DNA from: a virus
IMG/VR virus record: IMGVR_UViG_3300010373_000039
Span: 33,456-97,455 of that record
Length of the DNA stretch: 64,000 nt
Strand: one strand, 5' to 3'
This document shows positions 19,678-56,713 of this stretch, piece after piece (the stretch's first letter is position 1; every line of letters begins with the position of its first letter). The notes under the pieces are model-generated. The model was given only the letters and a program-made list of their open reading frames with translations. It had not been told where the DNA came from and did no database searches. The position numbers and the translations under genes were made by a program.

Positions 19678-20259
19678 CTATTTGGATCGCCGGATCAATC
19701 GGGGACGGTTGCGGATGCGACGGATCGCCAGGCGCTGGGCATAGGCCGACGCCCGTTTAATCAATTTCCAACGCAAACAAAACAGGGACGACAAACCGAA
19801 TACGTACATGTTCTCGCGGGGGTGCATGATGATCGCGCGGGGTTTGGGGTTACCGGCCCACCGCAACCATCGCAAACCCCGTTCGGACGTGAACAACAAT
19901 TCCCCGATATGGTTCTGCTTCATTATCAACAACGGTTGGCGTCGGCCGTCGCACTCGTCCAACAATTTTTCCCACCATTGAAGGATTTCCGGCCGGTAGC
20001 CGAAGAAAAATTTGTGGGTTTTCAAATCCTTGTAGAATTTGCATTCCAGCACAAATAAATCGACGAGCGGTTGGCCAAGAGGGTGGGTGCAAACGATGTC
20101 GCCGGCGTGGGCGTCGTGTTTCGATCCCTGTTTGCGGGCCACGGTGTTTCGGCCGCCGGACATGGCCGAACGCCAAAAACAATCCTTGCGGGTCATGTCG
20201 GAAACCCACAGGGAAAGTCGTTTGCAGGTGGCTCGTTCGTATTCCGGCCCTTTGCCCAT
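19678..20259 (-). CDS. Holliday junction resolvase-like PD-(D/E)xK nuclease (T5 D14-like)
   Basis: KG..YER, LSLW, RSAMSGG, GDI, ECKFYK, P.LIMKQN. Confidence 0.8.
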   Translation of the reverse strand: MGKGPEYERATCKRLSLWVSDMTRKDCFWRSAMSGGRNTVARKQGSKHDAHAGDIVCTHPLGQPLVDLFVLECKFYKDLKTHKFFFGYRPEILQWWEKLLDECDGRRQPLLIMKQNHIGELLFTSERGLRWLRWAGNPKPRAIIMHPRENMYVFGLSSLFCLRWKLIKRASAYAQRLAIRRIRNRPRLIRRSK

Positions 20260-20263
20260 TCAA

Positions 20264-21352
20264 TCACCCGTATTTCCGTCGTGTCGGCAAAAACTTCTTT
20301 TCGATCTCGAACCAGGCCGTGTCCACCGTCGCATGGACCCGTGCCATTTCGGTATTGTACTCGTCCCGGTCCATTTTGGAAAGTTTCTTGATATACTTGC
20401 CGGCCGTTTTGTCATTCAACCCCAACCGGCCCAGCATCCCCACCTCGTCTAGCCACATCAACGATGCGTCCAAATCGTCGATGCCGAAGGCAAACCGGAT
20501 AGGAAAATCACATTCACGGTAGGCCAACCCCACCTTGTTCTTTTTGCATCGCACACGGGTTTTGACGCCGATCGGCCGTTCCACCTTGTCAATGGTTTTC
20601 TTGATTTGGCCCATGTTGGCCAACCAAATGATTTGCGATGCGTAGTAATCCAGCGCCCGGCCACCGGAACGGGTTTGGGTTTCCCCGAACGTGACGCCGA
20701 TTTTGTCGCGCAATTGGGAGACGATCAATAGCGTGACGTTCAACCGTTCCAACCGTTTGACGTTCCGGCGGAACAATTGGCCCATCAATTTGGGTTTCTT
20801 ACCACCGTAGCTGTTCGCGCCGAATTCCGAATTGTTTTCCGCGTCGTCGCCAAGGGCATCCAACGAATCCAAAATGTACAATCCGGCCTTAGCGGGTTTT
20901 CCCGCCTTGACCAATTTACGTTCACCATCCTTGGTCACCGACGTACACCGAACCCCCTCGACCCGATCGCAAAATTCCTCCAAATCGGCGTGCCATTCCT
21001 CCACCGTTAGGACCGAAACCTCCTCGTTGAAATCGACCCGATCGACCGGCAACCCCACCGTTTCCGCGTAGGGGATATCGAACGCCGCCTCGGCCTCGCG
21101 ATACCGGATTAACCCCTCCTTGGGGTCCGGGTATTTAATGGCGAAGTTGGCGCATGTTTCGATCATTACCAACGATTTGCCGGTGGATTTGTCCCCCACG
21201 ATATTACCGACCCGTCCTTCGGCCCATCCGCCGCCCAGGACGCGATCCAGCAACCGACAGCCGGTCGGAATACACCGGACTTGGCTTGGTGCCGTAAAAT
21301 ACAACCCTGCGCCGCCCCGTTTTAGCCGGGGGCGTTCCCGTTTTTTAGCCAT
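20264..21352 (-). CDS. recA: RecA-like recombinase
   Basis: IPTG..LDRVLGGG, GDKSTGKS, ILDSLDAL, SQLRDKIGVTFG, SGGRALDYYAS, KNKV. Confidence 0.95.
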   Translation of the reverse strand: MAKKRERPRLKRGGAGLYFTAPSQVRCIPTGCRLLDRVLGGGWAEGRVGNIVGDKSTGKSLVMIETCANFAIKYPDPKEGLIRYREAEAAFDIPYAETVGLPVDRVDFNEEVSVLTVEEWHADLEEFCDRVEGVRCTSVTKDGERKLVKAGKPAKAGLYILDSLDALGDDAENNSEFGANSYGGKKPKLMGQLFRRNVKRLERLNVTLLIVSQLRDKIGVTFGETQTRSGGRALDYYASQIIWLANMGQIKKTIDKVERPIGVKTRVRCKKNKVGLAYRECDFPIRFAFGIDDLDASLMWLDEVGMLGRLGLNDKTAGKYIKKLSKMDRDEYNTEMARVHATVDTAWFEIEKKFLPTRRKYG

Positions 21353-21383
21353 GGCCGATCCTAGTTAGATGTGGAAATAGAAT

Positions 21384-21412
21384 GGGTGGTGGCTTTGACG
21401 TGACCACCACCC
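21384..21412 (-). terminator. Hairpin after the SSB gene (possible terminator/processing site)
   Basis: GGGTGGTGG/CCACCACCC inverted repeat followed by ATTCTATTT on the minus strand. Confidence 0.5.
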
Positions 21413-21442
21413 AACAAAACCCAAAGGATTGCGCGTGTTCGG

Positions 21443-22588
21443 TTAATCCAGGTCGTCGTCCTCGTCGTCTAGGCTTTCTTTTTCCCGACGCGAGGATGGT
21501 TTGTGGGCAAGCCTTTTGCGTCTTTTGTGACGGCGGGAATCACGGGTTTCTTCCTCGTCTCCGCCTTGAAGCTCTTCGCCATCGTCATCTCCTTCTTCAT
21601 CATCGTCATCATCCCGTTTGGACGCCGCGCGGCGCTTTTTACCACGGGACCGGCGACCATCATCCCCATCCTCGTCCTCGTCGTCAACGTCCGAGTCATC
21701 GTCGAGATCCTCGTCGTCATCGTCCGCTTCGTCATCATCGCGGAAGGAACGGCGGCGGGACTTTCGGTCATCATCCTCGTCGTCATCATCCTCGTCATGC
21801 CGCCGGCGTTCGCGGTCGCGACGGGTGCGAGGACGATCATCATCCTCGTCGTCATCATCCTTGCGCTTTTTGTTGCCGATGCCCCCGACCAACGCCTTGG
21901 TGATGTGCTCGGCGTCGAAAAATTCGATGCAATCGGGGATCGGATGTTTGGTGATGAACCGAAGCCATTTTTGCATCCGATCATCGTTGCGGTGCAGCGG
22001 GGTTTCGCGCGATGCCGGCTTGATGCCCTTGATTTCCGTGAAATCCCCCTTCTTGACACACTTGAAAAGAACATCACGGCCCTTGTAGGGATCATCGTAG
22101 AACACGGTTTCGTTGGTTTCCTCGTCCTCCGCCTCGGCGGCGATGTCACGATCCACGATCCATGACGGGGTCCATAGCATCGGACCATCCTCTTCACGGT
22201 CGCGGTCGATGATCCACATCACCTTGCGGGTTTTGGCCTTGGCATCATCCGCCGCCTTGTTGTTGCGGTGTTTGATCAGCTCGTTGCGCTCCTCGCACAC
22301 CGGGCATTCCTCGTTCTTCATCTTGGCCAAACACGCATATTGGTTGTTGTCCGCGCCGACGCCGTAATGGACCTCGACCGGGTACGCGTAGTGTTCCGCG
22401 CCGTCCCATGTGGGGGGCATGATCCGGATGCGATATTTTTCCCCGGCCTGCGGACTAAACGTCGGGAATTGGGCCTTGATAAACCCGTCCCGCGTCCCGC
22501 CCTTTTGATTGGCCTGGGTCTTAATCGTCGAGGCATCCCGTTGCTTGTACTCAAACCGTTTGCGTTCCCCACGATCACGATTCTTCAT
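21443..22588 (-). CDS. Single-stranded DNA-binding protein (gp32-like) with long charge-block tail
   Basis: RIRIMPP, VHYGVG, C..CPVCE zinc site, GRD motif; between recA and the UvsY-like gene; about 140 aa D/E/R/K tail. Confidence 0.75.
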   Translation of the reverse strand: MKNRDRGERKRFEYKQRDASTIKTQANQKGGTRDGFIKAQFPTFSPQAGEKYRIRIMPPTWDGAEHYAYPVEVHYGVGADNNQYACLAKMKNEECPVCEERNELIKHRNNKAADDAKAKTRKVMWIIDRDREEDGPMLWTPSWIVDRDIAAEAEDEETNETVFYDDPYKGRDVLFKCVKKGDFTEIKGIKPASRETPLHRNDDRMQKWLRFITKHPIPDCIEFFDAEHITKALVGGIGNKKRKDDDDEDDDRPRTRRDRERRRHDEDDDDEDDDRKSRRRSFRDDDEADDDDEDLDDDSDVDDEDEDGDDGRRSRGKKRRAASKRDDDDDEEGDDDGEELQGGDEEETRDSRRHKRRKRLAHKPSSRREKESLDDEDDDLD

Positions 22589-22827: not shown

Positions 22828-23391
22828 CTACCACTTCCGTTGTTGTTTGGATCGTTGTTCGGCCATGGCGGTACGGTTACGTTCGGCCCGCATGTCCCGT
22901 TGGGCGAAATCGACGTGACCGGCGGAATTGGTTTGGAAATAGGCGGCGACGTGCAGGTTAGCCAATTCGCGGATCATAAAACCACGGTCCCGCCACACAT
23001 CACGCATCCCCTCCCATTCGGCCAATTCCCGTTCCGCGTTCACCAATTGCTGGAACCCCTCCCGGCGTTTGGGCGAAATTTGAACGATTGCATCCAAAAG
23101 CTTTTCGGTTATTTTCTCTCCCTTGGATTCAAATTCCGCCCGTGCCTCGAGGTACGCCATGGCCTCGGCCGTTTTCAGCGCGTCCTTACATTGATCGCGA
23201 ACCGACCGGGCATGGGCCAATCGGTCACACACCTCCCCGAAGGAATTGGGTTGTTCCATCAACTCCCGGTCCAAATCATGTTTATTGATTTGCAACCGGG
23301 CACGGATCGCACCCCGTTCCACGTCGTTGGTCACCGGTTCCACGGCGGGTGGGTTATCGCGTCGTCGTTTTAGTTTGGGACGTTTTTTCAT
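22828..23391 (-). CDS. UvsY-like recombination mediator
   Basis: LQINKHDLDREL..QP, helical, KITEK motif; adjacent to SSB and recA. Confidence 0.65.
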   Translation of the reverse strand: MKKRPKLKRRRDNPPAVEPVTNDVERGAIRARLQINKHDLDRELMEQPNSFGEVCDRLAHARSVRDQCKDALKTAEAMAYLEARAEFESKGEKITEKLLDAIVQISPKRREGFQQLVNAERELAEWEGMRDVWRDRGFMIRELANLHVAAYFQTNSAGHVDFAQRDMRAERNRTAMAEQRSKQQRKW

Positions 23392-25002: not shown

Positions 25003-25674
25003 TTACCTTGGTTTAAGAACAGCGCCAAAATGGTCGGTCGCCTCGCCCGAATAACGATCAACCGTGGGTTGGCCGGCTTTGTCGAAAAACCACGCCGGTT
25101 CCCACTGTTGGTAAATAATACCCCAGGCATCGGTCCAATTTTTCGGTCGGTTTTCCAGGTCATCAAGCGCCCGACGACCGTAGACGCACAACGTTTTGGT
25201 CATTTTCCTTGAATCTTCCAAGAATTTGGCTAGAACATCGGGGTCCAAATGTTGCAAAACGTAGATGCACACAATGGCGTCGAACGAGCGGTAGTTTACC
25301 GATACCTTGGTGTATGAGGGTTCCAACACCCAACGAAATCGGTTTCGGGGATGGTTTAGTTGTTTCCAAAACAGTTTTTGGCCCCGCGCCAGCATTACCT
25401 CACTGTCGTGCGCCATGACCGCCCAATTGGGCGACATGTCCAACAACCCTACCGTGTTGCGCAACATCCCGGCCCCGAAATCCAAAATCTGCAATTGTCG
25501 GGACGTATCCAAACCGAACGATCGAAGTATATCGGTATCCGGTTTGAATTGGTCCAATTGGGTGATGTCCGAACAAATGCTTTTGGCCACCTCAAAATCG
25601 GTTCGGTGGTACGCGGCATTGCGCCGCCACTCGTCGGATAATCCATAGGGACCATCGTGGTTGCGGGCCATCAT
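25003..25674 (-). CDS. Class I SAM-dependent methyltransferase
   Basis: ILDFGAG..R, FDAIVCIYVLQHL. Confidence 0.8.
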   Translation of the reverse strand: MMARNHDGPYGLSDEWRRNAAYHRTDFEVAKSICSDITQLDQFKPDTDILRSFGLDTSRQLQILDFGAGMLRNTVGLLDMSPNWAVMAHDSEVMLARGQKLFWKQLNHPRNRFRWVLEPSYTKVSVNYRSFDAIVCIYVLQHLDPDVLAKFLEDSRKMTKTLCVYGRRALDDLENRPKNWTDAWGIIYQQWEPAWFFDKAGQPTVDRYSGEATDHFGAVLKPR

Positions 25675-26747
25675 TCCACCTCATAGTTTCCGAAAAACCC
25701 CTTTTGTATCCGTGATTGCCGACGGTGCTGGATTTTCATGTACTCCGGATTCAATTCGATGGAGATACACCGCCGCCCTAGTTTGGCGGCGACCATGGCG
25801 GTGGTTCCGGACCCCCCAAATGGATCAAGGACAATGTCCCCGGGTCGTGACGCCATTTTGATACACCGTTCCGGCAGCGACGGTGGGAACACCGCAAAAT
25901 GGGCATCCGAGCAGCTTATAGTTGGAATGTCCCAAACGGTTCGAAGGTTTCGTCCGTTGGGATTGGATGGGGTTTCGTGGTTATGGGCCACCGCGTATTG
26001 ACCATCCTTGCCCTTGGTAATGCGGGTGTATTTATCCCGTTCCAATGTCGTGGCGGCGACCGGCACACGCACCGCGTCCATGTCGAAATAGTATTTGGAT
26101 TTATATTTGGAAAACATGAACACGTGTTCGTGGTCCCGATTGGGACGATTGGGCGTGTTTTCCGGCATGGCGTTACGCTTGTACCAAATGCACTCGGAGC
26201 GAAGGGTCCAATTGTCCTCGCCGAACATCAAAATGGCGGTCATCCATGGAATGCCGACCAATTCCTTTTCATGGTAGCTATCCCCCAAATTCAAGAACAA
26301 TAGTCCATCGGGTTTCAGCACCCGGTATACTTCGGTCATTACCCTCCGAATATTGTGCATGTAGATGTACGCCGTAGGTTCACACCCCAATTCCCCCAGC
26401 CACGCCGAACACGTGTCCTTGAATTTGCAAAACCGTCCCCGGGACACCCCGCGTTGCCGTTGGGCCAACAGATTGGTGCGTCCCTTGCGTGCGCTGGTTT
26501 TTCCGGGCGTTTGTGCCGGGCCGTAGCGGATGATTTCCTCGCCCCATTCGTGCCTGCATGTGGGCGAACCGCCCCATATTTGCGGTTCGGTCCCATAGGA
26601 TCGCAATCCCCAATAGGGCGGCGATGTGACGGCCACTTGCACACATGATTCCGGCAACCCGCGCAATACGTCGATGCAGTGTCCGGTGATGTTGCAAATG
26701 CCACGCTCATCGAAACGGACCAATCGCCGCCGGTTAGTTGTAGGCAT
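25671..26747 (-). CDS. DNA N4-C/N6-A methyltransferase (beta class)
   Basis: VTSPPYWGLR, RVLKPDG..NLGD, HFAVFP, VLDPFGGSGTT. Confidence 0.93.
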   Translation of the reverse strand: MPTTNRRRLVRFDERGICNITGHCIDVLRGLPESCVQVAVTSPPYWGLRSYGTEPQIWGGSPTCRHEWGEEIIRYGPAQTPGKTSARKGRTNLLAQRQRGVSRGRFCKFKDTCSAWLGELGCEPTAYIYMHNIRRVMTEVYRVLKPDGLLFLNLGDSYHEKELVGIPWMTAILMFGEDNWTLRSECIWYKRNAMPENTPNRPNRDHEHVFMFSKYKSKYYFDMDAVRVPVAATTLERDKYTRITKGKDGQYAVAHNHETPSNPNGRNLRTVWDIPTISCSDAHFAVFPPSLPERCIKMASRPGDIVLDPFGGSGTTAMVAAKLGRRCISIELNPEYMKIQHRRQSRIQKGFFGNYEVE

Positions 26748-29397
26748 AGTGCGCCGCCATATTTTCGTGGTAATCCAATTTGACCCGATCCGAACGGAAC
26801 GTGCCTAATTTACTTTGTTCGTACCAATTGGGACCGTAGGACGCCTCGACCGCCAACGGCACGTTGATGAAATCGAATTCCGGATTGGCCATGGTGTTGG
26901 TGATAACCTCCACACCCTCGTCCAATTTGTTTTTGGGGATGAAGAAGGACAGGTCGTCGTGGATGTTCAACACCGGGGCCAACCACGGACGGTCCGTTTC
27001 GTAGGACATGTGGCATAGTTTCCGCCACGCCCACACCACCAATTCCGACGCCGTGCATTGGATTTTGGAATTGATGACCTGGTTTTTGGACATGGGACCG
27101 TAACGGCGCAACCCGTTCAACGATTCGCTGTAACCTAACCGGTTGTACTCCTTCATCTCCCATTTTTGGAATTTCAGCACCCCGGCGAACGTGTCCCAAA
27201 ATTCATCCCAAATGACCCGCAATACCTTGACCGGCATGTTATCCAGCGCCCGCGCTGCCAATCCGATCGATGCCCCGTAGAACCACGGAAATATAACATC
27301 GGTTTTCAATTCGCCACGGAACGATTTCATCGCCTTGTAGTCTAACGATCCGTGACGGCTGCGAACCACGGTGGGGTACACCCGCGCTATTTTCTCGGCC
27401 CAAACCATGTGAACGTCGTAATCATTGAACAACGAATCACATACTACCTTATCCTTCGACGCCATGCCGATCACGCGGTATTCCAATTGGCCCATGTCGA
27501 AACACGCCATGTAATGGCCGGACGGTGCCACGACCTGTTTGCGAATCCATTTCGATTTCCGCGACGGCCAATTTTGGTTGTTCGGATCGCTACTGCTAAG
27601 GCGTTTCGTGTCGGTGCGGGTATGGTTGAACCGGCAATGAATACGGCCGTCCGAGAACACCAACGGTTCGTCGGCGTCCATGGACATGCGTTCCACGTAT
27701 GTTCCGAACAATTTTTTGTGTCCACGAAGCTCTAGCAGCATTTTAGCCAATGGAACCCGGTTGGCTATCGTAGTTAGTATTTCTTCTTTCGTGGAAAAAC
27801 TTTTGGGGCCGGTTTTTACCTCCTTTAGTCCCAACATCTCCCAAAAAATCTTGATGTTGTTCGGGTGGCTGTCCTTGTATTTTCCGTACCGCGATTCAAA
27901 TTCGCGGATCACCGGCAAATTAGAGATGTCCGATTCCAGCCGTTTGATTTCCGCCGATTCCCGTTTGGCGATTGCCGAATTCTCGTCGGCGTCAACCGGA
28001 ATGCCGGTGGTTTGCGCCAGCGCAATGGCCACCACCCGTTCCACAAATTCACGGTAGGGTTTAATCATCCCCCGTCGTTCAAGAATGGCGATTTGCTTGA
28101 AATGGATTCGAAGGGTTTGTTTGGCGTCCAACGAGTTGTAATCCAACACATCGTCTACGTTGGTTTCCTCTAAACGTGCCCGGTCGATTTCCCCGATTTC
28201 CTCACGACCCAAACCCATCCATCCCTTAATCGTGCGGCCCTTGGACATCGATTTTAGTTTCAAACCAAAATGCAGGATGTTCAAGAAGTTTAACGACATC
28301 CCTCCCTCACGCTCATCGATCAAATAGGCCTCGGCCTGGGTGTCGAACCATTTGCCGGCAAACGCCAACCCCCGGCCATAGGAATAAATCAACCATTCCA
28401 ATTCAAACGGGGCGTTGTGCGCAACCTTGTCGATGTCCGCATAGAGATATTCAATGAATGCATCCTCGATCCGTTTTAGGTCGGATGGGGACCACACGTG
28501 CCCGGGATGTCGCAATGGAAACGCGATGGTTTCCTTGGGGGAACCGATCGCAACCGATAGAATTTTGGCCCCGGCGCTGTAGGGGCGGGACCGGTTGGTT
28601 TCTAGATCGATCGCTGTGGGGTAGCGGTTGCGCCTGATGCGTCGAAGGGCGTCAATGATATCATCGGCCCGCTTTAGGACCCTTACGCCCGCAAATAGCC
28701 GTTTATCGTCGGTCTCGACCGGTGGCTCCGGCAATTTGTCGTACTCACGGAACGCCCGTTTGATATCCCGGCCGAAGAACCGTTCATGCTCGGTGCCGGG
28801 GATTTGGGCGTATTCGTCGGTGTTTAGTTGTCGGAGGATAAATGCGGGGTGGACGGTGGGATAAACCCAGCACCGGTGGCCGGCGATGTCGGTGGGGAAT
28901 CGTCTACCACGACAGCATGTGATCGTTCCTGCCTCTTTGCCTAGACACCATTGCGTGGCCACGTCCCCCACCGCGATAACGATCCGGGGCGTGGCGGCAA
29001 CAATATCCTGTTCCACCGATGGTCGGTAGCATTCAATTTCGTGGTGGTTGGGCCGGTTCGATCCCTTGCGCTTTTTGGGTTGGGTTCCGCAAACGTTGTT
29101 GAACCGGATTTTGAAATCGTCGGGCAGGAACCGCCTAAGCAATTTACCGGATGGACCGACGAACGGTTTGCCGATTTGATCCTCTTGTTTTCCCGGCGCT
29201 TCCCCAAGGACATAAACCTCGCATGGCGTCGGCCCGCTAGGTTTCATGTGCCGGGTGCGGGCGGCGGGATTCATACGTTCCACCCCCTTTAGTCCGATTG
29301 CGTGTAGTCGGCTATCATCGACAATTGACGTGCGGGACGACCGCTGCGCGCGGTGTTCTACCTCAACCCGTGTAAAAAATCCGGTGGTGATCGGCAT
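26734..29397 (-). CDS. polA: Family A DNA polymerase with N-terminal uracil-DNA glycosylase (family 4-like) domain
   Basis: GEAPG..ED..GKPFVGPSG and HPA (UDG); DLET and HN..FE (exonuclease); RLSSSDPN.QN, DMGQLEYR, R..K..F..YG, IQ, HDD (polymerase). Confidence 0.93.
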   Translation of the reverse strand: MPITTGFFTRVEVEHRAQRSSRTSIVDDSRLHAIGLKGVERMNPAARTRHMKPSGPTPCEVYVLGEAPGKQEDQIGKPFVGPSGKLLRRFLPDDFKIRFNNVCGTQPKKRKGSNRPNHHEIECYRPSVEQDIVAATPRIVIAVGDVATQWCLGKEAGTITCCRGRRFPTDIAGHRCWVYPTVHPAFILRQLNTDEYAQIPGTEHERFFGRDIKRAFREYDKLPEPPVETDDKRLFAGVRVLKRADDIIDALRRIRRNRYPTAIDLETNRSRPYSAGAKILSVAIGSPKETIAFPLRHPGHVWSPSDLKRIEDAFIEYLYADIDKVAHNAPFELEWLIYSYGRGLAFAGKWFDTQAEAYLIDEREGGMSLNFLNILHFGLKLKSMSKGRTIKGWMGLGREEIGEIDRARLEETNVDDVLDYNSLDAKQTLRIHFKQIAILERRGMIKPYREFVERVVAIALAQTTGIPVDADENSAIAKRESAEIKRLESDISNLPVIREFESRYGKYKDSHPNNIKIFWEMLGLKEVKTGPKSFSTKEEILTTIANRVPLAKMLLELRGHKKLFGTYVERMSMDADEPLVFSDGRIHCRFNHTRTDTKRLSSSDPNNQNWPSRKSKWIRKQVVAPSGHYMACFDMGQLEYRVIGMASKDKVVCDSLFNDYDVHMVWAEKIARVYPTVVRSRHGSLDYKAMKSFRGELKTDVIFPWFYGASIGLAARALDNMPVKVLRVIWDEFWDTFAGVLKFQKWEMKEYNRLGYSESLNGLRRYGPMSKNQVINSKIQCTASELVVWAWRKLCHMSYETDRPWLAPVLNIHDDLSFFIPKNKLDEGVEVITNTMANPEFDFINVPLAVEASYGPNWYEQSKLGTFRSDRVKLDYHENMAAHYAYN

Positions 29398-32930: not shown

Positions 32931-33803
32931 TTACTTCAACTTGCCCAGGTCGTCAAGCTGCTTGATCGTGGCGCTGGTGTCGTGCCAAACACCCTTGATA
33001 TGCTGTTCGCTGAGCTTGGGGTGTTTCTTGCCGATGGTGGCAATGGTTTTTTCGATCGAAATTTTGGGGTTCTTGCAAACCAGTGCCCGGATCGCCTTGC
33101 GGCCGGCCACCAATTCCTCGCCGGTCGGTCCCGCCGCGTCCTTGGATTTGCCGCCCTTACCCTTGGACGACGAGGTTTTGTCGCCCTTTCCTCCTTTCTT
33201 GGATTTGGGTTTTTCGTCCTCCTCGTCGTCATCGTCCGCGTCGTCATCATCGGACTCCTCGTCGTCGTCCGAATCATCGTCGGATTCGTCATCATCGGAC
33301 TCCTCGTCCGAATCTTCGTCGTCATCCGCGCTGTCGTCGTCGGAATCGTCATCGTCCGATTCCTCGTCGTCATCGTCCGAATCGGAATCTTCATCATCGT
33401 CCGCCTCTTCGTCGTCGCCGTCGTCATCAGACTCTTCGTCATCATCGGATTCTTCGTCGTCCTCCCCCTCGTCGTCCGAATCGTCATCGTCGGACGTGTC
33501 GGAATCATCCGAATCATCGTCCTCGTCATCCTCCTCCGGCTCGTCCGCGCCGCCGTCGAAATCGTTCAACGGCTTCTTCTTTTTGGAATCTTCGTTGTCG
33601 TTGGCGATTTCGACGTTATCGCCCACCCAATCCTGCGCCTCCTGGGACAGCTTGGCGAACGCCTTTTCCTTCATGGTGTTCGCCGACTCCATCAACCGGT
33701 CCAAGTAGTCCTGCCGGTCCTCCTTCTTGCCCTGCGGCTTTTCCTTGGTCGCCGCCAACAATTCCGCTTCGATCTTGCTCGTCTTCGCCGTCTTTGTTCC
33801 CAT
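32931..33803 (-). CDS. Highly acidic protein with >100-residue Asp/Glu/Ser tract and basic helical C-terminal domain
   Basis: Translation; RBS AAGGAG; highly expressed codon style; has its own promoter motif and terminator. Confidence 0.85.
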   Translation of the reverse strand: MGTKTAKTSKIEAELLAATKEKPQGKKEDRQDYLDRLMESANTMKEKAFAKLSQEAQDWVGDNVEIANDNEDSKKKKPLNDFDGGADEPEEDDEDDDSDDSDTSDDDDSDDEGEDDEESDDDEESDDDGDDEEADDDEDSDSDDDDEESDDDDSDDDSADDDEDSDEESDDDESDDDSDDDEESDDDDADDDDEEDEKPKSKKGGKGDKTSSSKGKGGKSKDAAGPTGEELVAGRKAIRALVCKNPKISIEKTIATIGKKHPKLSEQHIKGVWHDTSATIKQLDDLGKLK

Positions 33804-33865: not shown

Positions 33866-34429
33866 CTATGCCAAAACCGCCTCGGGGGCGATTTTTAGGA
33901 AACTTAGCATTTCGGACACGACATCCCGATCCGCCTGCACCCGCCCGACGCGCCGCATGAAATCATTGACGGTTTCACGGGGTTTGCGTTTGGGCGGCCG
34001 TGACGATTTGGTTAGGAAGTAGACAATATTTTGAAGGTGTGGTGGGGCGGATGACATGTCCAAATTAACCTCACCGAATCCGTAGAACCGTCCCTGCCGC
34101 CGTTCCATCCAATTTTCCCGCCGGCGCACGTCGGTTGCGTTGCGGGCGATGTGTTTGACGGATCGTTTCAACGCAATCTTATGAACGGCGTTCGTAAACG
34201 ATGTTCGGAATAATCCGGCGAAATGCTCCGGGGATATGGGTTTTTCATCATCCCAATATTTCCGGAAGCATTTTACAAACACGTATCGTGCCTCTCCCAT
34301 TAGATCGTCCACGTCCATATAGGGTCGCGTGCGCCACACATTTCTATTGCAGAAGTTGAGTGCCCAACCCGCCAATGGTCCGTCGAATTGGGGACGTAGG
34401 CGCGGACGATGCCTCAGCACTTTTCCCAT
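33866..34429 (-). CDS. Putative phage sigma-factor-like protein (region 2-like)
   Basis: DVDDLMGEA..VF.KC.RKYW..F..LF..SF.N pattern resembles sigma70 region 2; no clear region 4. Confidence 0.5.
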   Translation of the reverse strand: MGKVLRHRPRLRPQFDGPLAGWALNFCNRNVWRTRPYMDVDDLMGEARYVFVKCFRKYWDDEKPISPEHFAGLFRTSFTNAVHKIALKRSVKHIARNATDVRRRENWMERRQGRFYGFGEVNLDMSSAPPHLQNIVYFLTKSSRPPKRKPRETVNDFMRRVGRVQADRDVVSEMLSFLKIAPEAVLA

Positions 34430-34536
34430 GGTTTGTCCTTTCCGTGTTTGGGAATAGCCCATTGCCCCGGATATGATGTACGTCCATTACTATGTTCCCG
34501 GCCGGAGCAACCGGGGTTTTACTAAATACTAGCCAA

Positions 34537-39509: not shown

Positions 39510-41087
39510 TTAGTGACGCCGAGCAAGAAAATTGACAGGAACGGTGCCGTCCACAATCGCATCCATCAAATCCTTACCTTGTTTTTGCATTTTCAACAAA
39601 CGGGTGTCGATTGATCCCCGCACCGCGTAATCCATGACGAACACCGAGCGTTTTTGTCCCATGCGGTGGCACCGCTTGAGCATTTGTTTCCGCATCTTGG
39701 GATCGGATGGCGGCTCGAAGAACATCACATAGTTACCGACCTGCCAATTGCCCCCGAACGCGCCGGCGCTGGACGACACCAACACCCGTACCGATGGATC
39801 GTTGAATGCATGGGCGATGTCCCGTTTCAATTTTGCCGGCGTACCGGACCACAACCGGATATGTTTGATTTTAGCCTTCGTCAACGCGTCACTGATGATT
39901 TGCCCGGTTTGGTTGTAGTGATGGAACACCACGATTTTGCGTTTGGGCGAGATATCATGAATGTCGGCCAGCAACGCATCCAATTTCGGGTTTTCCTTGA
40001 AACGGATGATGGATTTGTCCCCGGCCTCGGTTTTCAACACCAAATAACCGGCGGTAATGGATCGCATCCGGTGGAACGGATTATCCGATACCTTCACCGC
40101 TTGGGCAATTTGTTGTTCCCGTAATTGCTCGACCAACCGATCGTAGTATTTCCAGGTTTCTCGTGGGAATTCCACCAACCGGGTAATCGGAACGATTTTG
40201 GGCAAATCCAAGCATTCGTTTTCCTCATATCGGATCGACCGATTGCGGATCATGCGATTAAGCAACCATTTCTTGCGACGGTCGAATTTCCACTCCATCC
40301 CACCCCAATAGTTGCGCTTGCCCCGGAAGAATGCGCCACGGTACAACGCCATGGTCTCGCCCAATGTTTCACCACCGTCGATCACGTGGAATTGTGCCCA
40401 CAATGGCGTCGGATCGTTGCCCATGGGGGTTCCGGTCAACGCATAGGCGGCGCGGGTGGTTTCGGACCATGACAGCGATTTGCACATCCGGTAGGTCATG
40501 GAATTTGCACTGCCGAACGCGGTCGATTCATCGAATGTAAGAAAACCGAATTGTGCCGCCACCTTGTCCACTAATTTGTAATCGATTTTCCAACCCCGGG
40601 CGGTTTTCCGTTTCTTAGCCTTCTTGTTGCACACCAACGACAACAACCCCATGTAGGTAATAATCACCACATCGGCGCTGGGGTCCATCAATTGCTGCCA
40701 CCGCTTGGTTGATCCGTTGCCGTCCACGCCCACCGGTTTAAGGCCGGTTTGCTTGCGTATTTCGTCGCACCATTGCCCAACGTTCGATGCGTTGGGGACG
40801 GTGACCAGCATTTTGATTTTGGGATTGCGCCGGCGGCGGTAGTGGCTATATAATGCCAACGAAATCAACGATTTGCCCAACCCCGGATCGTAGAACAACA
40901 AATAACGCCGGCGCTGCAGGCATAGAAGAAAACCAACGCGCTGGTGGTGCCGAAGTTTGTTGCTTAATTTGGGTGGGTGCGATTCCCGGTACATCCGCAA
41001 AATACGTTTGCGGGGTAGACGTTTGGCCCGTGCGCTGTCGCGAAGGGGCCGGTCCATCCATCGTTGTACCGCAATCGGGGAGATCAT
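39510..41087 (-). CDS. SNF2-family (superfamily 2) helicase
   Basis: DPGLGKS, FDES, LTGTP, KIVVF, RCHRMGQ. Confidence 0.92.
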   Translation of the reverse strand: MISPIAVQRWMDRPLRDSARAKRLPRKRILRMYRESHPPKLSNKLRHHQRVGFLLCLQRRRYLLFYDPGLGKSLISLALYSHYRRRRNPKIKMLVTVPNASNVGQWCDEIRKQTGLKPVGVDGNGSTKRWQQLMDPSADVVIITYMGLLSLVCNKKAKKRKTARGWKIDYKLVDKVAAQFGFLTFDESTAFGSANSMTYRMCKSLSWSETTRAAYALTGTPMGNDPTPLWAQFHVIDGGETLGETMALYRGAFFRGKRNYWGGMEWKFDRRKKWLLNRMIRNRSIRYEENECLDLPKIVPITRLVEFPRETWKYYDRLVEQLREQQIAQAVKVSDNPFHRMRSITAGYLVLKTEAGDKSIIRFKENPKLDALLADIHDISPKRKIVVFHHYNQTGQIISDALTKAKIKHIRLWSGTPAKLKRDIAHAFNDPSVRVLVSSSAGAFGGNWQVGNYVMFFEPPSDPKMRKQMLKRCHRMGQKRSVFVMDYAVRGSIDTRLLKMQKQGKDLMDAIVDGTVPVNFLARRH

Positions 41088-44040: not shown

Positions 44041-45020
44041 TTCCGCACCAATCGTTTGCGGTTACACACGGCGGCGGCGATGCGCGGATCACCCTTCACA
44101 AACACCAACACCGTTTGGTGGGTACGGCCCACCTTGCGGGACCGTTGGAATTGCTTGGTGACCCGGATCGGCAACGAACCAATGGCCGTCAACAACATGA
44201 TTTCGTTGTAGTAGCGTGCGCCGGCGTCCTCGAATGCCCGGATCGTGTCCGGAACCAATCCGTAATAATATCCTTCCTTTTCCCGTGTCGAACGCGCTTC
44301 CCCAACCACCCACACCGCAAACCGGTTATTTTTCAACCGCCGAACCGATTGTTTGATGATGTCGAAATAGGCACGTTTGAAGGTTTCATAGTCCATGTTG
44401 GACAAATCGCGCGGATGGTCCGAATAGACCTCCAAATCGGCGTAGGGTGGGCAACTAAAAACCAAATCGAATGTCTTTTCGTCGTTGAATTCCTTTAGCA
44501 CCCCACGACTATCCCCGCAAATCCATTCGGCCGACCGATCGTCCAGGATTTTTTCCTGTTGAACCAAATTGGCACGGACCTGTTCCCCGCGTAATTCAAT
44601 CCCCAAGTATTTTCGTCCCGTATGTCCGGCAACGATGCCGCGAACCGATCCGCCGGCGAATGGGTCCAACACCATTCCCCCATCGGGCGAAAACCATGTG
44701 TAAACACATTCGCACAACACCGGATCGAAAATCGATGTGCCCGATCCGGTATCCAGGATTTTCTTGGACACCGGGTCCAAATCCTTATATTCGCGGGTGC
44801 CGGCAACGAAGGTAAACCGCTTGGTTTCCCCATTGGACGCCCGGCCCAATTCCGATTCGATCCCCAGCGCCAACCATGCGCGCTTGCGGTCCTGCCAATA
44901 CCCCGCCTTGGCGTCCAACACACTAAACGGGGGTACGACAAAACGTCGCTGTAATAGACTCGCGTTTACCGGGGCGTATGGGATGTTGAAGAACCCCTCT
45001 GCCCGTAGTTTCCTACCCAC
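44037..45020 (-). CDS. DNA amino-methyltransferase (alpha order; family often fused to ParB)
   Basis: PPFSVLD..GYWQ.RK..W, TSIFDPVLCE, LDPFAGGSVRG, FSCPPY.DLEVYS, HQ.VLVF.KG. Confidence 0.88.
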   Translation of the reverse strand: MGRKLRAEGFFNIPYAPVNASLLQRRFVVPPFSVLDAKAGYWQDRKRAWLALGIESELGRASNGETKRFTFVAGTREYKDLDPVSKKILDTGSGTSIFDPVLCECVYTWFSPDGGMVLDPFAGGSVRGIVAGHTGRKYLGIELRGEQVRANLVQQEKILDDRSAEWICGDSRGVLKEFNDEKTFDLVFSCPPYADLEVYSDHPRDLSNMDYETFKRAYFDIIKQSVRRLKNNRFAVWVVGEARSTREKEGYYYGLVPDTIRAFEDAGARYYNEIMLLTAIGSLPIRVTKQFQRSRKVGRTHQTVLVFVKGDPRIAAAVCNRKRLVRK

Positions 45021-45429: not shown

Positions 45430-45465
45430 GACTATTACTATATGATAGTCATGATCAAATGTCAA
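45430..45465 (-). promoter_or_regulatory. Sigma70-type promoter with operator palindrome
   Basis: TTGACA-17-TATAGT; GACTAT-N9-ATAGTC inverted repeat over the -10 box. Confidence 0.75.
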
Positions 45466-49613: not shown

Positions 49614-49915
49614 GGTTTGGTCCGTGTTAGCCGGACGCGCCGCGGGCGTGTTTCCCGGCCGTTAAGGGTGATAAAGGATGCTTCCATAGGCCGTTGATGC
49701 TTAAATAGCGGAAATCGACCGGGCGGCAGCGCCAAACGGATTTGACGGGCGTATAGGTCGAAATCAATTACCAAATCGGCCACCGTTTTTACTACGGAAC
49801 CGAAATAACAAGCGCCGCCACGTTCCCGGCCGTAGCGCAAATAGTCGGGGAACAACGACGATCCCCGAACGCCGGCCGGCAGTTGTTGGAGCAATTGATC
49901 CAATGCCCGGCCCAT
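49610..49915 (-). CDS. Hypothetical protein with Arg-rich C-terminus
   Basis: Coupled ORF. Confidence 0.55.
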   Translation of the reverse strand: MGRALDQLLQQLPAGVRGSSLFPDYLRYGRERGGACYFGSVVKTVADLVIDFDLYARQIRLALPPGRFPLFKHQRPMEASFITLNGRETRPRRVRLTRTKP

Positions 49916-51176: not shown

Positions 51177-51917
51177 TTATCGGTGTGGTTTCCGTTTTAG
51201 TTTCTTCCGGCGCTTGGCCGGTTTTTCATCCAGCGCCCGCTGGTTGGCCTTGATCTCATCCAACATATCCAAGGCGCGCTGCCGGCCCGGTTGGGTGTCC
51301 TGCGGTTTGGCTATACCCAGGTGTTGTTGGATCAACGACGGGTCGGGCGTGGGATCATTGCCGTAGACCGTGAACGGGTCCAACCCAAGGTTGATAATGG
51401 CTTGGTCGATGTTTTTCTTGATTTGTTCGGCCAATTTGGGGTTGCGTTCCATGCGGGCGCGTTTGTAGTCATTGACCCAACCCTGCAATCCGGGTGGGAT
51501 CGTTCGACGTAATGCCTCGCCGATAACCCGATCCGCCTCCTCCACCAATTTCGTTTTGAATTTGGTCAATGTGGATTGAAGGATTGATTGGGTAGCATAG
51601 GGCGATGCCGTTTGGGGTGAATCAAACGCCGGTTGGTTGGGTGGTTGTGCGGCCGTGACGCCTTCCGTCGCGATGGGTTGTTTGGCCTTGCAATAGAAAT
51701 TGTTGGACCCGGCCGGCAATTCCTCACCGGTTTTCATGGCGTCGGACGCGATTCGGCACATTTGCCGCAACCGGGTGAATTCATCGACCGGCATCGAAAC
51801 GTGAAGCTCATCCCCGATTTCGGTCCGAAGAACCAAATAGACCTCGATGGTTCCATTGCCCGGGTTGTATAGACATACCCGTTGCGGTGACGTGTTGCGG
51901 TATTTGATATTGGTCAT
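51177..51917 (-). CDS. Hypothetical protein with basic C-terminal tag
   Basis: 246 aa, ends KRRKKLKRKPHR. Confidence 0.6.
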   Translation of the reverse strand: MTNIKYRNTSPQRVCLYNPGNGTIEVYLVLRTEIGDELHVSMPVDEFTRLRQMCRIASDAMKTGEELPAGSNNFYCKAKQPIATEGVTAAQPPNQPAFDSPQTASPYATQSILQSTLTKFKTKLVEEADRVIGEALRRTIPPGLQGWVNDYKRARMERNPKLAEQIKKNIDQAIINLGLDPFTVYGNDPTPDPSLIQQHLGIAKPQDTQPGRQRALDMLDEIKANQRALDEKPAKRRKKLKRKPHR

Positions 51918-52108: not shown

Positions 52109-52109
52109 C

Positions 52110-53994: not shown

Positions 53995-54273
53995 ATGCGA
54001 TTTGACCAAACCCACGCGATTGTCAAACGACTCGAGGACCACCGGATAACCGGCGAACCATTCCAATGTTCCGGCCCGGTCGGTTGCGATGATTTCGCCA
54101 TTTCCTGCAAAATCGGTGAAAAGGTTTATCATTACGCCGATGAAGAAATGGTAATGGTTTATCCATCGACCAGGGCCGAGGAAAATGGTGGCCCGTTCAC
54201 GACTATCGACAAGGGCGAATTTTGGCAAAGGGTTTTGGACAATTTTTACGGTCCCCGGCCGGCAAGAGCATGA
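53995..54273 (+). CDS. Hypothetical protein
   Basis: RBS AGGAG. Confidence 0.55.
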   Translation: MRFDQTHAIVKRLEDHRITGEPFQCSGPVGCDDFAISCKIGEKVYHYADEEMVMVYPSTRAEENGGPFTTIDKGEFWQRVLDNFYGPRPARA

Positions 54274-54497
54274 ACCCAAAGATTCTACAACGGATCGCGC
54301 AATCGATTGAATCGGACGCGGCCGACACCACCCGCTACCAAGCGGAATTGGTGGCCAACTACACGCCCGGAACCGTGGAGAATTGGCAGGGGATTTTGCA
54401 ACGGGTGGCGACCCTTGACCGCCAATGGCGGGAGGCGCGGGAACGCCAGGATCGTCGATTCAATCGCCGACGGCGTATAAATAGGGTGGCAAAATGA
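54270..54497 (+). CDS. Hypothetical protein, Arg-rich end
   Basis: ATGA-coupled. Confidence 0.5.
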   Translation: MNPKILQRIAQSIESDAADTTRYQAELVANYTPGTVENWQGILQRVATLDRQWREARERQDRRFNRRRRINRVAK

Positions 54498-54682
54498 TTA
54501 TCGAATTGATCGCAATCTCGTTCATTTGGCATGAATCCTTCTCCCAGCGGGGATGGATTCAAATCCCTATCCCGGTCTACCGCGCCGGCGGTATGATCCC
54601 ACAAACAATTGCCCGGCCCATCACACAACCCGGCCGGAGGAAGGATGGTGTTAAGCGGACCCGCCCCATGGCCGTAGGTTGA
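54494..54682 (+). CDS. Small hypothetical protein
   Basis: ATGA-coupled; preceded by GCGTATAAATAGG. Confidence 0.4.
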   Translation: MIIELIAISFIWHESFSQRGWIQIPIPVYRAGGMIPQTIARPITQPGRRKDGVKRTRPMAVG

Positions 54683-54790
54683 CCGATAGCACATCCCTAT
54701 AAAAGATGGATTGGCCTAAAGAGAATAATGACGGCAAGGATAGACGGCTCTATCCTTGCCGTCGTTCATTTGGTGTATAATGTAGTTATC

Positions 54791-56713
54791 ATGCGATTGA
54801 TCCGCGTAACGCTTGCCTATTTCCGTTCGTTCCGAAAACCACAGACATTTTACTTCGGTCGTCGTCCCGGGTTGTATCTATTGCTTGGCGACAACCAAAC
54901 CAACAAACGGTTGGGCGGGAACGCGGCCGGCAAATCCACATTGTTAGACGCCATATCGTGGTGTCTCTACGACAAAACCCTCCGTGGCCTCCGCGCCGGC
55001 GACATCGCCAATTGGCACGGCGAGGGAATGCCCACGGTGGACGTTGAAATAGAAAACGACGGACGCTATATTGTTTCGCGAACGTGGAACCCCAATTCAT
55101 TGACGGTCACGCACCGCGATAAAACGCGAACGATGACGCAAGCGGAATTGGAGAAATGGTTGGGCATCAACCACCCCACGTTTTCCGCCACGGTCCTTCT
55201 TGGACAATTCAACCGGTTATTCCTTGATTTGTCCCCGGCCGAAAAATTGGCCGCGTTCGCCCATACGTTGGGGTTGGACCAATGGGACCGGGCGGCGGAT
55301 GTTGCGAAAAAACGGGCGACAACGGTTGCCCAAACGATTGCGGAACATGATCGGCGGATGGCGCGGATCGGTGGTAAAATTGCCGCGACGTTAGCCGAAC
55401 GTAAAGAGCTTAAGAAATTAGCGACGGCATGGGATCGAAAGCTTAGTGGTCGTTTACTCGATCTTAAATCCCAGCTAAAATCGGCCAAACGCCGACGAAG
55501 GTTGGCCAATGCCAAATGGATCGAAACGCAGCAATCGGCGGATCACATCGACGCGACATTGGAGAGTTTGTCCGGCGAAATCCGCAAATTCGACAAATTG
55601 CACTCGGATCAATCGAAGATAGTCAACCGGTTGACCGGGGAACATGACACGGCCGTTAGACGGTTGGCCAATGCCAATAAGCAATTAGGGCTTCTTGAAA
55701 CGGCCAAAGCGCAATGCCCGACGTGCGGTCAACCGATCAACCCGGAGCATTTGCAACGGGAATTGAAGGGAACCCGGGCGGCGATCCAATCATTGAAGGC
55801 GGCGGAAATCCACGCCCATGAAATGTTGGCCATGGGCAAGGAGTTGTTGGGTAAATATGCCAAGCGATTGTCGGGCATGTTGGACGCCAACCAACAACTA
55901 TCCGCGTCCCGAACCATGGCCGAACGCATTTGCGGGGGCGCTAAACGGGATTACGACCGGGCACGCGACAAAATGTCGGACCTATCCCGTAGGATCGACG
56001 AAGGCACCGAAAACCCCCACCGACACCAAGTCATACGCCTTAATCGATCCTTGGCCCGTCTGCGTTCGACCCGTGACCGACTAGCCGAAACCCGTGGCAC
56101 CTATGACGCCGATCTACGGACGGCCGAATTTTGGCACCGGGAATTTAAGGCGTTGCGGTTGTGGTTGATCGAATCCTCACTTCGTCAATTGACCATTGAG
56201 ACCAACAATAGCCTAATCAATCTTGGGTTGCGTGGATGGCGGATCGAGTATGATGTTGAGCGCGTCACCAAATCCGGAACGCTAACCCGGGGATTTACCG
56301 CCCACGTGTTTGCGCCGCACCACAAGAACCCCGTGAAATTGGAGGCATGGTGCGGCGGTGAATTCCAACGCTTGAAACTCGCGGCCGCAATCGGCACCGC
56401 CGCATTCCACCGCGCCCGGACCGGTGTAGACATGGGCGTGGAAATGTGGGATGAGCCCACGCAACACCTTAGCCGGTCGGGCGTGATGGATTTAATGGAC
56501 CACTTCGCCGATCGCGCCCGTGATGAAAACCGTGAGATTTGGATCGTGGACCATCGCGCCCCGGCCGCCGGGTCGTTCGTCGATACCGTCACGGTCCGCA
56601 AGCGCAAGGATCAATCCCAAATCATCGGCGGCCGGATGCATTATGGCAACGCCACCGGGTTTTCACGTGATAGCCGATCCAAATGGCAACGGCGTTTGAA
56701 ACGGTCTACCTAG
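54791..56713 (+). CDS. sbcC: SbcC/Rad50-like SMC ATPase
   Basis: FRSF, GNAAGKST (Walker A), Q-loop LGQ, CPTCGQ zinc hook, coiled coils, CGGE signature, WDEP, VDH. Confidence 0.92.
   Translation: MRLIRVTLAYFRSFRKPQTFYFGRRPGLYLLLGDNQTNKRLGGNAAGKSTLLDAISWCLYDKTLRGLRAGDIANWHGEGMPTVDVEIENDGRYIVSRTWNPNSLTVTHRDKTRTMTQAELEKWLGINHPTFSATVLLGQFNRLFLDLSPAEKLAAFAHTLGLDQWDRAADVAKKRATTVAQTIAEHDRRMARIGGKIAATLAERKELKKLATAWDRKLSGRLLDLKSQLKSAKRRRRLANAKWIETQQSADHIDATLESLSGEIRKFDKLHSDQSKIVNRLTGEHDTAVRRLANANKQLGLLETAKAQCPTCGQPINPEHLQRELKGTRAAIQSLKAAEIHAHEMLAMGKELLGKYAKRLSGMLDANQQLSASRTMAERICGGAKRDYDRARDKMSDLSRRIDEGTENPHRHQVIRLNRSLARLRSTRDRLAETRGTYDADLRTAEFWHREFKALRLWLIESSLRQLTIETNNSLINLGLRGWRIEYDVERVTKSGTLTRGFTAHVFAPHHKNPVKLEAWCGGEFQRLKLAAAIGTAAFHRARTGVDMGVEMWDEPTQHLSRSGVMDLMDHFADRARDENREIWIVDHRAPAAGSFVDTVTVRKRKDQSQIIGGRMHYGNATGFSRDSRSKWQRRLKRST

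Follow-up and report, generated by a model that had tools for sequence, protein, structure and literature searches.

Why does a single phage have the same short Arg-Leu peptide on a floppy end of some dozen DNA-handling proteins that are unrelated to one another? The question was raised by an earlier note on a window of 64,000 nucleotides (the whole stretch of DNA that was analysed), which belongs to an uncultured phage genome of 97,455 bp. The observation itself was confirmed: all ten peptides quoted in that note were found where it had placed them, and the copies of the tag are listed in Table 1 together with the two acidic proteins considered as its partners. A literature search found no published description of an R-x-R-L end tag.

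Table 1. Copies of the tag and acidic candidate partners, in window positions.
Feature	Position	Strand	Protein and gene	Place in the protein
RPKLAR (sole non-terminal strict match)	1936..1953	+	60-aa ORF 1834-2016, virion block	residues 35-40
RPRLIR	19690..19707	-	193-aa PDDEXK nuclease, 19678-20259	residues 185-190, 3 from C-terminus
RPRLKR	21317..21334	-	RecA/UvsX-like recombinase, 20264-21352	residues 7-12, upstream of conserved GG-x-YF
Disordered C-terminal tail	21446..21877	-	gp32-like SSB, 21443-22588	residues 238-381
RPKLKR	23365..23382	-	187-aa UvsY-fold mediator protein, 22828-23391	residues 4-9
RRRLVR	26715..26732	-	DNA methyltransferase 1, 25671-26747	residues 6-11
Acidic protein	32931..33803	-	290 aa, pI 4.05	D/E/S tract of ~110 residues
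RPRLRP	34391..34408	-	198-aa basic protein, 33866-34462	residues 19-24 (8-13 from second Met)
RKRILR (looser)	40995..41012	-	SNF2-family helicase, 39510-41087	residues 26-31
RKRLVR	44043..44060	-	327-aa DNA methyltransferase 2, 44037-45020	residues 321-326
RVRLTR	49622..49639	-	101-aa protein, 49610-49915	3 from C-terminus
RKKLKR	51192..51209	-	246-aa protein (ORF51177), 51177-51917	4 from C-terminus
RRRINR (looser)	54468..54485	+	91-aa protein, 54222-54497	3 from C-terminus
QRRLKR (looser)	56687..56704	+	SbcC/gp46-like ATPase, 54728-56713	2 from C-terminus

The peptide in this genome

The pattern [RK][PRK][RK]L.[RK] had seven matches among the 145 predicted proteins of the whole genome. Six of them lie no more than 14 residues from a terminus, the N-terminus in RecA, the UvsY-like protein and methyltransferase 1 and the C-terminus in the PDDEXK nuclease, methyltransferase 2 and ORF51177. 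Only 0.18 terminal matches were expected from shuffles of whole proteins and 0.45 when only the terminal 20 residues were shuffled, so that the motif does exceed shuffled controls, a comparison that the earlier note had proposed; the observed number was reached in none of 3000 shuffles, a P value that is optimistic because the pattern was derived from the same data. Looser copies are found in SbcC, the SNF2 helicase, the small terminase and small proteins. Each tagged protein of this genome carries a single tag (doubled tags were found in a few proteins only, in relatives). Codons vary between the copies, indicating that selection acts on the peptide.

The tags lie outside the folds, as had been claimed. 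In the recombinase, the nuclease, the UvsY-fold protein and the two methyltransferases they are found outside the recognised domains, which begin at residue 24 in RecA and span residues 36-339 in methyltransferase 1 (Pfam N6_N4_Mtase) and only 3-118 in the nuclease (PDDEXK_15). The same applies to the SNF2 helicase (domain at residues 48-477) and the small terminase (from residue 28). The assignment of the mediator as UvsY-like is supported by its fold (AF2 pLDDT 90.7), with T4 UvsY as the top 16 Foldseek matches in the PDB, and its tag-bearing residues 1-22 are without secondary structure. On the other hand, the 198-aa protein that had been called sigma-like belongs to no Pfam family, and its sole PHROG match is of unknown function. 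Family searches gave no match for the 101-aa and 246-aa proteins.

Almost every tagged protein handles DNA. The contrast between replication and virion genes that had been anticipated was not significant (7 of 99 vs 1 of 46 tagged, Fisher P 0.44). The earlier note had not seen the tag on virion proteins. The strict match in the virion block is internal, but the small terminase (genome positions 9388-9828, outside the window) and the portal of one relative are tagged.

A modular and genome-specifically spelled tag

The pattern came from this genome's own proteins, and independent support is supplied by related phages. In 80 IMG/VR loci the core [RK]x[RK]L was found 127 times at termini vs 70 in local shuffles (z 6.7), and 56 vs 34 times (z 4.3) after family weighting and removal of RecA, SSB, UvsY and nuclease. 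Control patterns in which Leu was replaced by A, V, I, E or G, or the motif was reversed, had no terminal excess in these loci. Among the complete relatives there were 16 terminal matches vs 6.7 expected in G002 and 14 vs 6.9 in G003, with no significant excess in G001 (11 vs 9.0). The pattern is short and is also matched by Arg/Leu-rich helices. Some of the SSB and UvsY matches are pieces of conserved helices and not free tags.

As had been predicted, the core is kept at the termini of RecA, nuclease and UvsY homologues. The motif is found most widely in the RecA family: RecA homologues start M-x-R-x-R-L, and [RK]x[RK][LIVM] was found in 73 of 110 of their N-terminal arms, down to 45% identity, with the first R at a median position of 3. 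Nuclease homologues often end in R-[VI]-R-L, and in UvsY the tag is at the N- or the C-terminus, differing between orthologues. A similar change of end was found in methyltransferase 2, whose orthologue in G001 has an N-terminal MKRSKLRG in place of the C-terminal tag, and the G001 orthologue of the 198-aa protein has an N-terminal KRNKLRLKRR. The tag is absent from the orthologues of the SNF2 helicase in G001, G002 and G003, and orthologues of SbcC in relatives are without a terminal tag. The tagged families differ by genome, including a helicase in G002 and the portal in G003. Several of the carriers (the methyltransferases, the terminase, the G003 portal and an HTH protein) do not belong to the classical clients of an SSB. 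In general the tag hugs the extreme termini, and in several relatives it stops exactly at the Leu.

Each genome also has its own spelling. The middle residue is P here and in G001, K/R in G002 and I/V in G003, a preference that is significant in a test resting on these four genomes (chi-square 25.7, permutation P 0.002); internal copies of the motif have no genome-specific middle residue (P 0.35). Similarity between the tags of different families within a locus is also raised. Two tags of G002 read RKRLSPE with the Ser encoded by AGC in one and TCA in the other. Such spelling fits a shared docking partner. Net charge per 12 residues is +4.8 here and +5.6 in G001, but only +1.4 in G002, where the tags are nearly neutral with acidic flanks (-1.2). 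In the tags E is often found at x and at position -1. The G002 values make the core more than a charge patch and count against a purely electrostatic Arg-acid coacervation; the likeness to NLS/NoLS signals is only chemical. The tag is selected at the level of the peptide, terminal, spelled by genome and modular, having been gained, lost and shifted from one end to the other; these data support a functional modular label rather than an accident of composition.

A probable docking motif and its possible reader

The end peptide is probably a selected docking or address motif. It would be a short linear motif, (E/K)-R-x-(R/K)-L, on disordered N- or C-terminal tails, here mostly R-P-R/K-L with extra basic residues, and its bearers are RecA/UvsX, UvsY, the PDDEXK nuclease, the two methyltransferases, SbcC, the SNF2 helicase, the small terminase and several small proteins. 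We infer that one phage-encoded partner reads it, through a small pocket that takes up Leu and the x residue and is bordered by acidic groups. Such a reader would co-evolve with the tag and would gather recombination, repair, modification and packaging proteins at one place on the replicating phage DNA. To this statement as a whole, a docking motif with a candidate single phage-encoded reader for which the SSB is the best guess, we give a probability of about 0.5.

Both acidic features on which the original proposal was built are present. The 290-aa protein, with 48 D/E in one 60-aa window, matched no family in Pfam or PHROG. Among the three complete tag-bearing relatives only G003 has a homologue, which makes a role as the general reader unlikely. 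The earlier interpretation of an address label with a shared partner is partly supported: it fits a peptide that is modular, switches ends and is spelled by genome, but not the acidic protein as a general scaffold.

The SSB is a more tentative than firm candidate, proposed from predicted structure and from analogy with T4. The AF2 model has a core (residues 15-236, pLDDT >95) whose top Foldseek matches are RB69/T4 gp32 (probability 1.0, TM 0.63-0.67 on target), followed by the tail (pLDDT <50), 144 residues of poly-D/E alternating with Arg blocks, with 36 D/E in one 60-aa window and an acidic end, DDEDDDLD. A tail with acidic and basic blocks was present in 79 of the 79 SSB homologues checked. 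KRRKRL (21509-21526), previously counted as a copy of the tag, is part of a separate conserved tip, L-x-x-[LM]-R-x-R-R, that merely overlaps the pattern; in the single-chain model this tip was not docked on the SSB's own core. Among the partners of T4 gp32 are UvsX, UvsY, Dda and gp46/47, which would parallel the tagged set (UvsX, UvsY, gp46-like, helicase). In T4 these heterotypic partners are drawn by the acidic C-domain of gp32 and not by a tag common to them. If the SSB is the reader, the tag may bind an acidic region of the core or the acidic blocks of the tail, and the address would be SSB-coated ssDNA, possibly as a condensate.

Binding to the core would resemble the 'LAST' of T4 gp32, a basic N-terminal peptide (KRKST, B domain) whose docking site is an acidic region on the core of the adjacent gp32 (PMC12424627). 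The tag has in common with LAST that it is short, basic and placed on a flexible end, and the phage SSB has the gp32 fold. However, LAST is on gp32 itself, reads (K/R)3(S/T)2 and serves self-cooperativity, whereas the tag sits on a dozen other proteins, needs Leu and may be at either terminus; the N-terminus of the phage SSB (MKNRDRGERKRF...) is basic but without LAST or R-x-R-L. Binding to the tail would be closer to the nucleolar NPM1, whose acidic tracts bind linear motifs rich in arginine (PMC4786410), and to E. coli SSB, which forms condensates (PMC7584906). The likeness is in the combination of client Arg motifs with a long acidic tract and in an SSB with a disordered tail; unlike in NPM1, most clients here have one tag and are not multivalent, Leu is required and the G002 tags are nearly charge-neutral. 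In the cultured relatives MAR10 and ZHS the SSB tails are similar, but the ends of the same proteins are merely generic basic, indicating that an acidic tail alone does not require the Leu motif.

Other explanations of the tag

The alternative that survives best, although unlikely, would make the tails 'molecular sleds' or non-specific tethers to DNA, giving sequence-independent affinity and one-dimensional sliding with no protein reader. The adenovirus pVIc peptide is a precedent (PMC4740752), also a short basic terminal peptide of a virus that gives its cargo access to DNA. DNA is the substrate of nearly all tagged proteins, the tags are strongly cationic here and in G001, and MAR10 and ZHS have their generic basic tails on the same proteins. 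Against it stand the specific need for Leu, the near-neutral tags of G002, the genome-specific x residue, for which DNA binding does not account, and the frequent E at x and -1; pVIc differs from the tag in the first three of these.

A docking motif could also have the recombinase as its target. Just as BRC repeats mimic the protomer-joining peptide of Rad51, the tag could be a copy of the phage RecA's N-terminal arm that binds the RecA core, the clients being loaded onto RecA filaments or regulating them. In the arm the motif lies shortly before GG-x-YF, and this element aligns with the strand that joins protomers in bacterial RecA; RecA and another protein can have identical starts in one genome (e.g., MERVRL in L049), and the SSB, UvsY and nuclease are recombination partners. 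As with BRC repeats, the recombinase's own arm would thus have look-alikes on other proteins. However, the aromatic anchor has not been copied (there is no YF beside the tag in tagged partners), 10 to 39 residues separate the tag from the RecA core, and many carriers are unrelated to recombination, with no obvious need for RecA in methyltransferases, terminase, portal and HTH proteins. We consider this reading improbable.

Slightly less credit can be given to a reading of the tag by the host, through ClpX, DnaK or a similar unfoldase, protease or chaperone or through some other hub, which would set the stability or timing of early proteins. The peptide is terminal, exposed and basic-plus-hydrophobic, a character similar to that of MuA-type ClpX signals and DnaK sites, and its spelling could track the host. 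The phage has no known host, one core works at both N- and C-termini, and the tagged set is coherent by function (DNA transactions) and not by timing.

The beta-type sliding clamp of the phage (gene 30065-31132) is a marginally poorer candidate still. The tag would then be its private binding motif, like the gp45-binding tails that T4 has on its polymerase, gp55 and gp33. The phage has its own clamp and clamp loader genes, the tags of several relatives terminate right at Leu, and the short motifs of clamp clients typically lie at the extreme N- or C-terminus (PMC11139829). More broadly, hub-docking motifs such as QL[SD]LF of the beta clamp, the PIP box, the gp45-binding tails and, in reverse polarity, the tip of bacterial SSB-Ct (PMC11139829, PMC10164576) are, like the tag, short modular terminal peptides common to many unrelated DNA enzymes, often at the extreme end. 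SSB-Ct is carried by the hub, whereas the phage tag is on the clients. The R-x-[RK]-L core, with basic or acidic flanks, is unlike QL[SD]LF or the acidic-hydrophobic T4 tails, and the phage clamp is basic (pI 8.6). The DNA polymerase, an obligatory client, is without the tag: of 56 PolA homologues none had [RK]x[RK]L at the C-terminus and one at the N-terminus, and the conserved C-terminal tail that they share is another one, G-[TV]-F-x-S-[DN]-x-W.

Finally, a functionless by-product of Arg-rich termini and post hoc choice of a pattern is very hard to credit: the pattern, a short one, comes from the very data in which it was counted, the replication-virion contrast is not significant and G001 has no excess, but shuffles that preserve local composition reject it here and in independent relatives, the control patterns are flat, and RecA homologues of 45-60% identity retain the motif.

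Gene content and the terminal Arg/Leu peptide

The 64-kb window forms the right-hand part of one 97,455-bp virus record. Gene calling by codon-usage score gave 145 genes. Packaging and virion genes make up a plus-strand block, after which comes a long minus-strand block with the replication proteins marked minus in the table, a module that is syntenic with its counterpart in Vibrio phage MAR10. One member of this module, a 187-aa protein located between the clamp loader and the protein that binds single-stranded DNA (SSB), had been labeled UvsY-like in an earlier note on this DNA. The label is right, since the sixteen best Foldseek matches of its predicted structure (pLDDT 90.7) in the PDB were all T4 UvsY (TM 0.73–0.80 on the target). 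It was the fold search that found T4 UvsY, the family profile having no match among PDB sequences. The label sigma-like, which the same note gave to a 198-aa protein, found no support in the family searches.

Features of the genome, with looser versions of the terminal peptide (window coordinates unless stated otherwise)
Feature	Coordinates	Strand	Looser tag
Small terminase, just outside the window	genome 9388-9828		ERVKLKR (residues 8-14)
60-aa ORF, virion block	1834-2016		
Mre11-like phosphoesterase		-	
PDDEXK nuclease	19678-20259	-	
RecA	20264-21352	-	
RecA, C-terminal peptide	20264-20290	-	
gp32-like SSB	21443-22588	-	
UvsY-like protein	22828-23391		
Clamp loader		-	
Beta-type clamp		-	
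N6/N4 DNA methyltransferase 1	25671-26747	-	
Family A DNA polymerase (PolA)		-	
PolA, C-terminus	26734-26800	-	
PolA, residues 56-191	28825-29232	-	
290-aa acidic protein	32931-33803		
198-aa protein ("sigma-like" in the earlier note)	33866-34462		RPRLRP
SNF2 helicase		-	RKRILR
N6/N4 DNA methyltransferase 2	44037-45020	-	
DnaB-like helicase		-	
DnaB-like helicase, C-terminus	45462-45500	-	
ORF49610			RVRLTR
ORF54222			RRRINR
SbcC-like ATPase, downstream of the minus-strand block	54728-56713	+	QRRLKR

The earlier note had also pointed to a short Arg/Leu terminal peptide (the tag, core R-x-[RK]-L) on unrelated proteins, and every peptide that it quoted was found in place. The note's own strict pattern, [RK][PRK][RK]L.[RK], has seven matches in the proteome, of which six are no more than 14 residues away from a protein end: N-terminal in RecA, the UvsY-like protein and methyltransferase 1, and C-terminal in the nuclease, methyltransferase 2 and ORF51177. 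Whole-protein shuffling gives an expectation of 0.18 terminal matches, and shuffling the terminal 20 residues alone, which keeps their Arg-rich composition, gives 0.45; six were reached in none of 3000 shuffles. The observation is borne out and extends to a large clade. The statement that virion proteins lack the tag was right in direction, but the contrast (7/99 vs 1/46, P 0.44) is underpowered. The sole internal match, RPKLAR, belongs to the predicted 60-aa ORF of the virion block, which has a Lys/Asp-rich tail.

In the domain matches, recognised domains begin past the tags or stop short of them. The Arg and Leu codons vary among copies, so the signal is one of peptide sequence, not of DNA sequence; this rules out a DNA-level signal at gene junctions, such as a ribosome-binding site or a promoter. 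Wrongly called start codons are an unlikely origin of the N-terminal tags, given that each called start is the earliest ATG in its frame and the RecA homologues share the N-terminus. The Arg codons of the tags are nearly all CGN, with one AGG in the RRRINR of ORF54222 and another in a non-tag match, QHRLIR. Unlike this genome, one complete relative (G001) uses AGR codons freely.

The tag in relatives and its genome-specific spelling

Because the pattern was chosen on this genome, its relatives weigh more as evidence. Metagenomic RecA homologues (45–62% identity) start with M-x-R-x-R-L, followed by a variable spacer and GG-x-YF; [RK]x[RK][LIVM] occurs in 73 of 110 RecA arms, and the median position of its first Arg is 3. 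The comparison covered 80 loci from IMG/VR that surround RecA genes of this type; the closest RecA relatives (54–62% identity) lie on Logan/JGI contigs, outside this set. The nuclease orthologues frequently carry a C-terminal R-[VI]-R-L, in some cases ending exactly at the Leu, and in the UvsY orthologues the motif is N-terminal in some genomes and C-terminal in others, a switch of ends that is typical of a modular linear motif.

Once RecA had been removed and sequences had been collapsed at 70% identity, there were 127 terminal matches to [RK]x[RK]L versus 70 in local shuffles (z 6.7); control patterns with A or V for L, or reversed, showed no excess at termini. When RecA, SSB, UvsY and the nuclease were all removed and families weighted, there were still 56 versus 34 (z 4.3), with the controls between z -1.2 and 1.8. 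The strict six-residue pattern had no excess in relatives (6 vs 4.6), and the versions that carry over to them are the four-residue core and R.[RK]L.[RK] only. In three complete relatives, the terminal matches were 16 vs 6.7 expected in G002 (P 0.002), 14 vs 6.9 in G003 (P 0.01) and 11 vs 9.0 in G001, the last not significant. The tagged families vary by genome, including the DnaB-like helicase in G002 and the portal and an HTH protein in G003. The Mu-type portal of G003 (L104:7573-9093, minus strand) begins MVERVRLGK, the same tag as that of the DNA enzymes of G003, and the portal orthologue in G002 has no tag. No homologues of the small terminase were found in five complete relatives. Two cultured relatives, Vibrio phage MAR10 and Edwardsiella phage ZHS, were considered as a test bed and discarded; they share the syntenic module without the R-x-R-L system, and their protein ends have generic basic tails only.

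The middle residue of the tag depends on the genome (chi-square 25.7, permutation P 0.002), being Pro here and in G001, Lys/Arg in G002 (RKRL-[ST]-P-E) and Ile/Val in G003, whereas internal copies of the same pattern had no genome effect (P 0.35). Over 65 non-redundant loci, tags of different families within a locus shared the middle residue in 29 of 222 pairs versus 19.3 permuted (P 0.02), and their flanks were also more similar (z 2.8). Two RKRLSPE tags of G002 differ in codons, including Ser AGC vs TCA, which points to convergence on one spelling and not to recent copying. The tags are strongly cationic here; in G002 the 12-residue window is just +1.4 and the flanks are net acidic. The conserved Leu, the genome-specific neighbor and the tolerance of neutral flanks agree more closely with a small protein pocket than with purely electrostatic contacts to DNA or an acidic polymer.

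Candidate readers and the proposed address-label reading

As the partner that would bind the tag, i.e., its putative reader, we favor the gp32-like SSB. Its core matches T4/RB69 gp32, and residues 238–381 are predicted to be disordered throughout, with poly-D/E alternating with Arg blocks. Among abundant hubs it is the only one with an unusual feature, this long acidic/arginine-block tail, that is universal in the clade. T4 gp32 binds UvsX, UvsY, Dda and gp46/47, counterparts of several tagged proteins. The docking of the basic LAST peptide of T4 gp32 on the acidic part of the neighboring gp32 core (PMC12424627) also counts in favor. Against this, AF2 left the tail undocked, and MAR10 and ZHS have similar SSB tails without the Leu motif. 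The last 15 residues of SSB homologues (L003-L085) include a tip with the conserved sequence [RK]-L-x-x-[LM]-R-x-[RK]-R, after which acidic residues (DDDED) often follow. The end of SSB here is part of this distinct tip, in the form L-x-x-[LM]-R-x-R-R. The tip differs from the acidic SSB-Ct tip of bacteria and only overlaps the tag pattern; docking of the tip onto the SSB core itself was not seen in AF2.

It is also possible that the tag mimics a RecA interface, RecA having an arm of this kind. However, the YF anchor is not reproduced in the tagged clients, the distance between tag and RecA core is only loosely kept, and it is not obvious what methyltransferases, terminase or portal would need RecA for. 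At its other end, RecA of this clade (homologues P0002-P0120) carries a peptide of basic and aromatic residues that is strongly conserved, F-[LI]-P-x-R-[RK]-K-Y(-G). It is opposite in character to the acidic C-tail found in RecA of bacteria and is a candidate for a second docking motif. The sliding clamp is an unlikely reader, being itself basic, and the polymerase had no terminal R-x-R-L in 56 homologues, carrying instead its own conserved aromatic C-terminal tail. This extra tail, G-[TV]-F-x-S-[DN]-x-W beyond the usual NW..A end (also in L077, L085, L023, L022 and L049), is likely a clamp-binding one. The 290-aa acidic protein (48 D/E in a 60-residue window; without a family in Pfam or PHROG or an informative match in Atlas) is unlikely to be the general partner, since it was found in just one of the three complete relatives.

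The closest known systems are hub-docking peptides, i.e., clamp-binding motifs, the SSB-Ct system and T4 LAST, and in chemistry the tag comes nearest to the pVIc sled (PMC4740752) and the NPM1 R-motifs. Tested for membership of the clamp motifs, of LAST, of the multivalent R-motifs and of the BRC mimics, the tag did not qualify, and it is therefore not assigned to any of these classes. It would act as a hub-docking motif whose spelling and client set are new, and full-text literature searches turned up no description of such a tag. A condensate, as suggested in the earlier note, may be involved, an idea that we keep in view of the condensates of E. coli SSB (PMC7584906) and of NPM1, whose acidic tracts are binding sites for R-motifs (PMC4786410).

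The address-label part of that proposal is partly supported by the modular peptide, the terminal excess in relatives and the genome-specific spelling. We give a probability of only about 15% to the complete reading, in which the tag is a co-evolving address label that sorts DNA proteins into a membrane-less replication factory on phage DNA. The polyampholyte tail of the gp32-like SSB would be the scaffold, recombination, repair, methylation and packaging proteins would partition into the factory, and a tagged terminase or portal would bring in procapsids. Such a label would be the linear-motif counterpart, in a large clade of ca. 100-kb phages, of protein import into the jumbo-phage nucleus. 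If the tag is real, widespread uncultured phages of this size would organise their DNA transactions by one portable five-residue label, a simple handle for spotting unknown phage proteins that work on DNA and for recruiting foreign cargo to replication sites. How phages without a proteinaceous nucleus co-locate recombination, modification and packaging would become testable, the spellings would be a natural experiment in motif-reader co-evolution, and the reader, once identified, would add a new hub to the biology of phage replication.

PolA carries, N-terminal to its exonuclease and polymerase domains, a uracil-DNA-glycosylase-superfamily domain (PF03167, E 1e-17). The DnaB-like helicase ends in an acidic-aromatic tail, DDTDEDFTDED, that recalls the polymerase-binding tails of T7 gp4 and gp2.5, and acidic runs are also present at the ends of ORF49916 and ORF53033.
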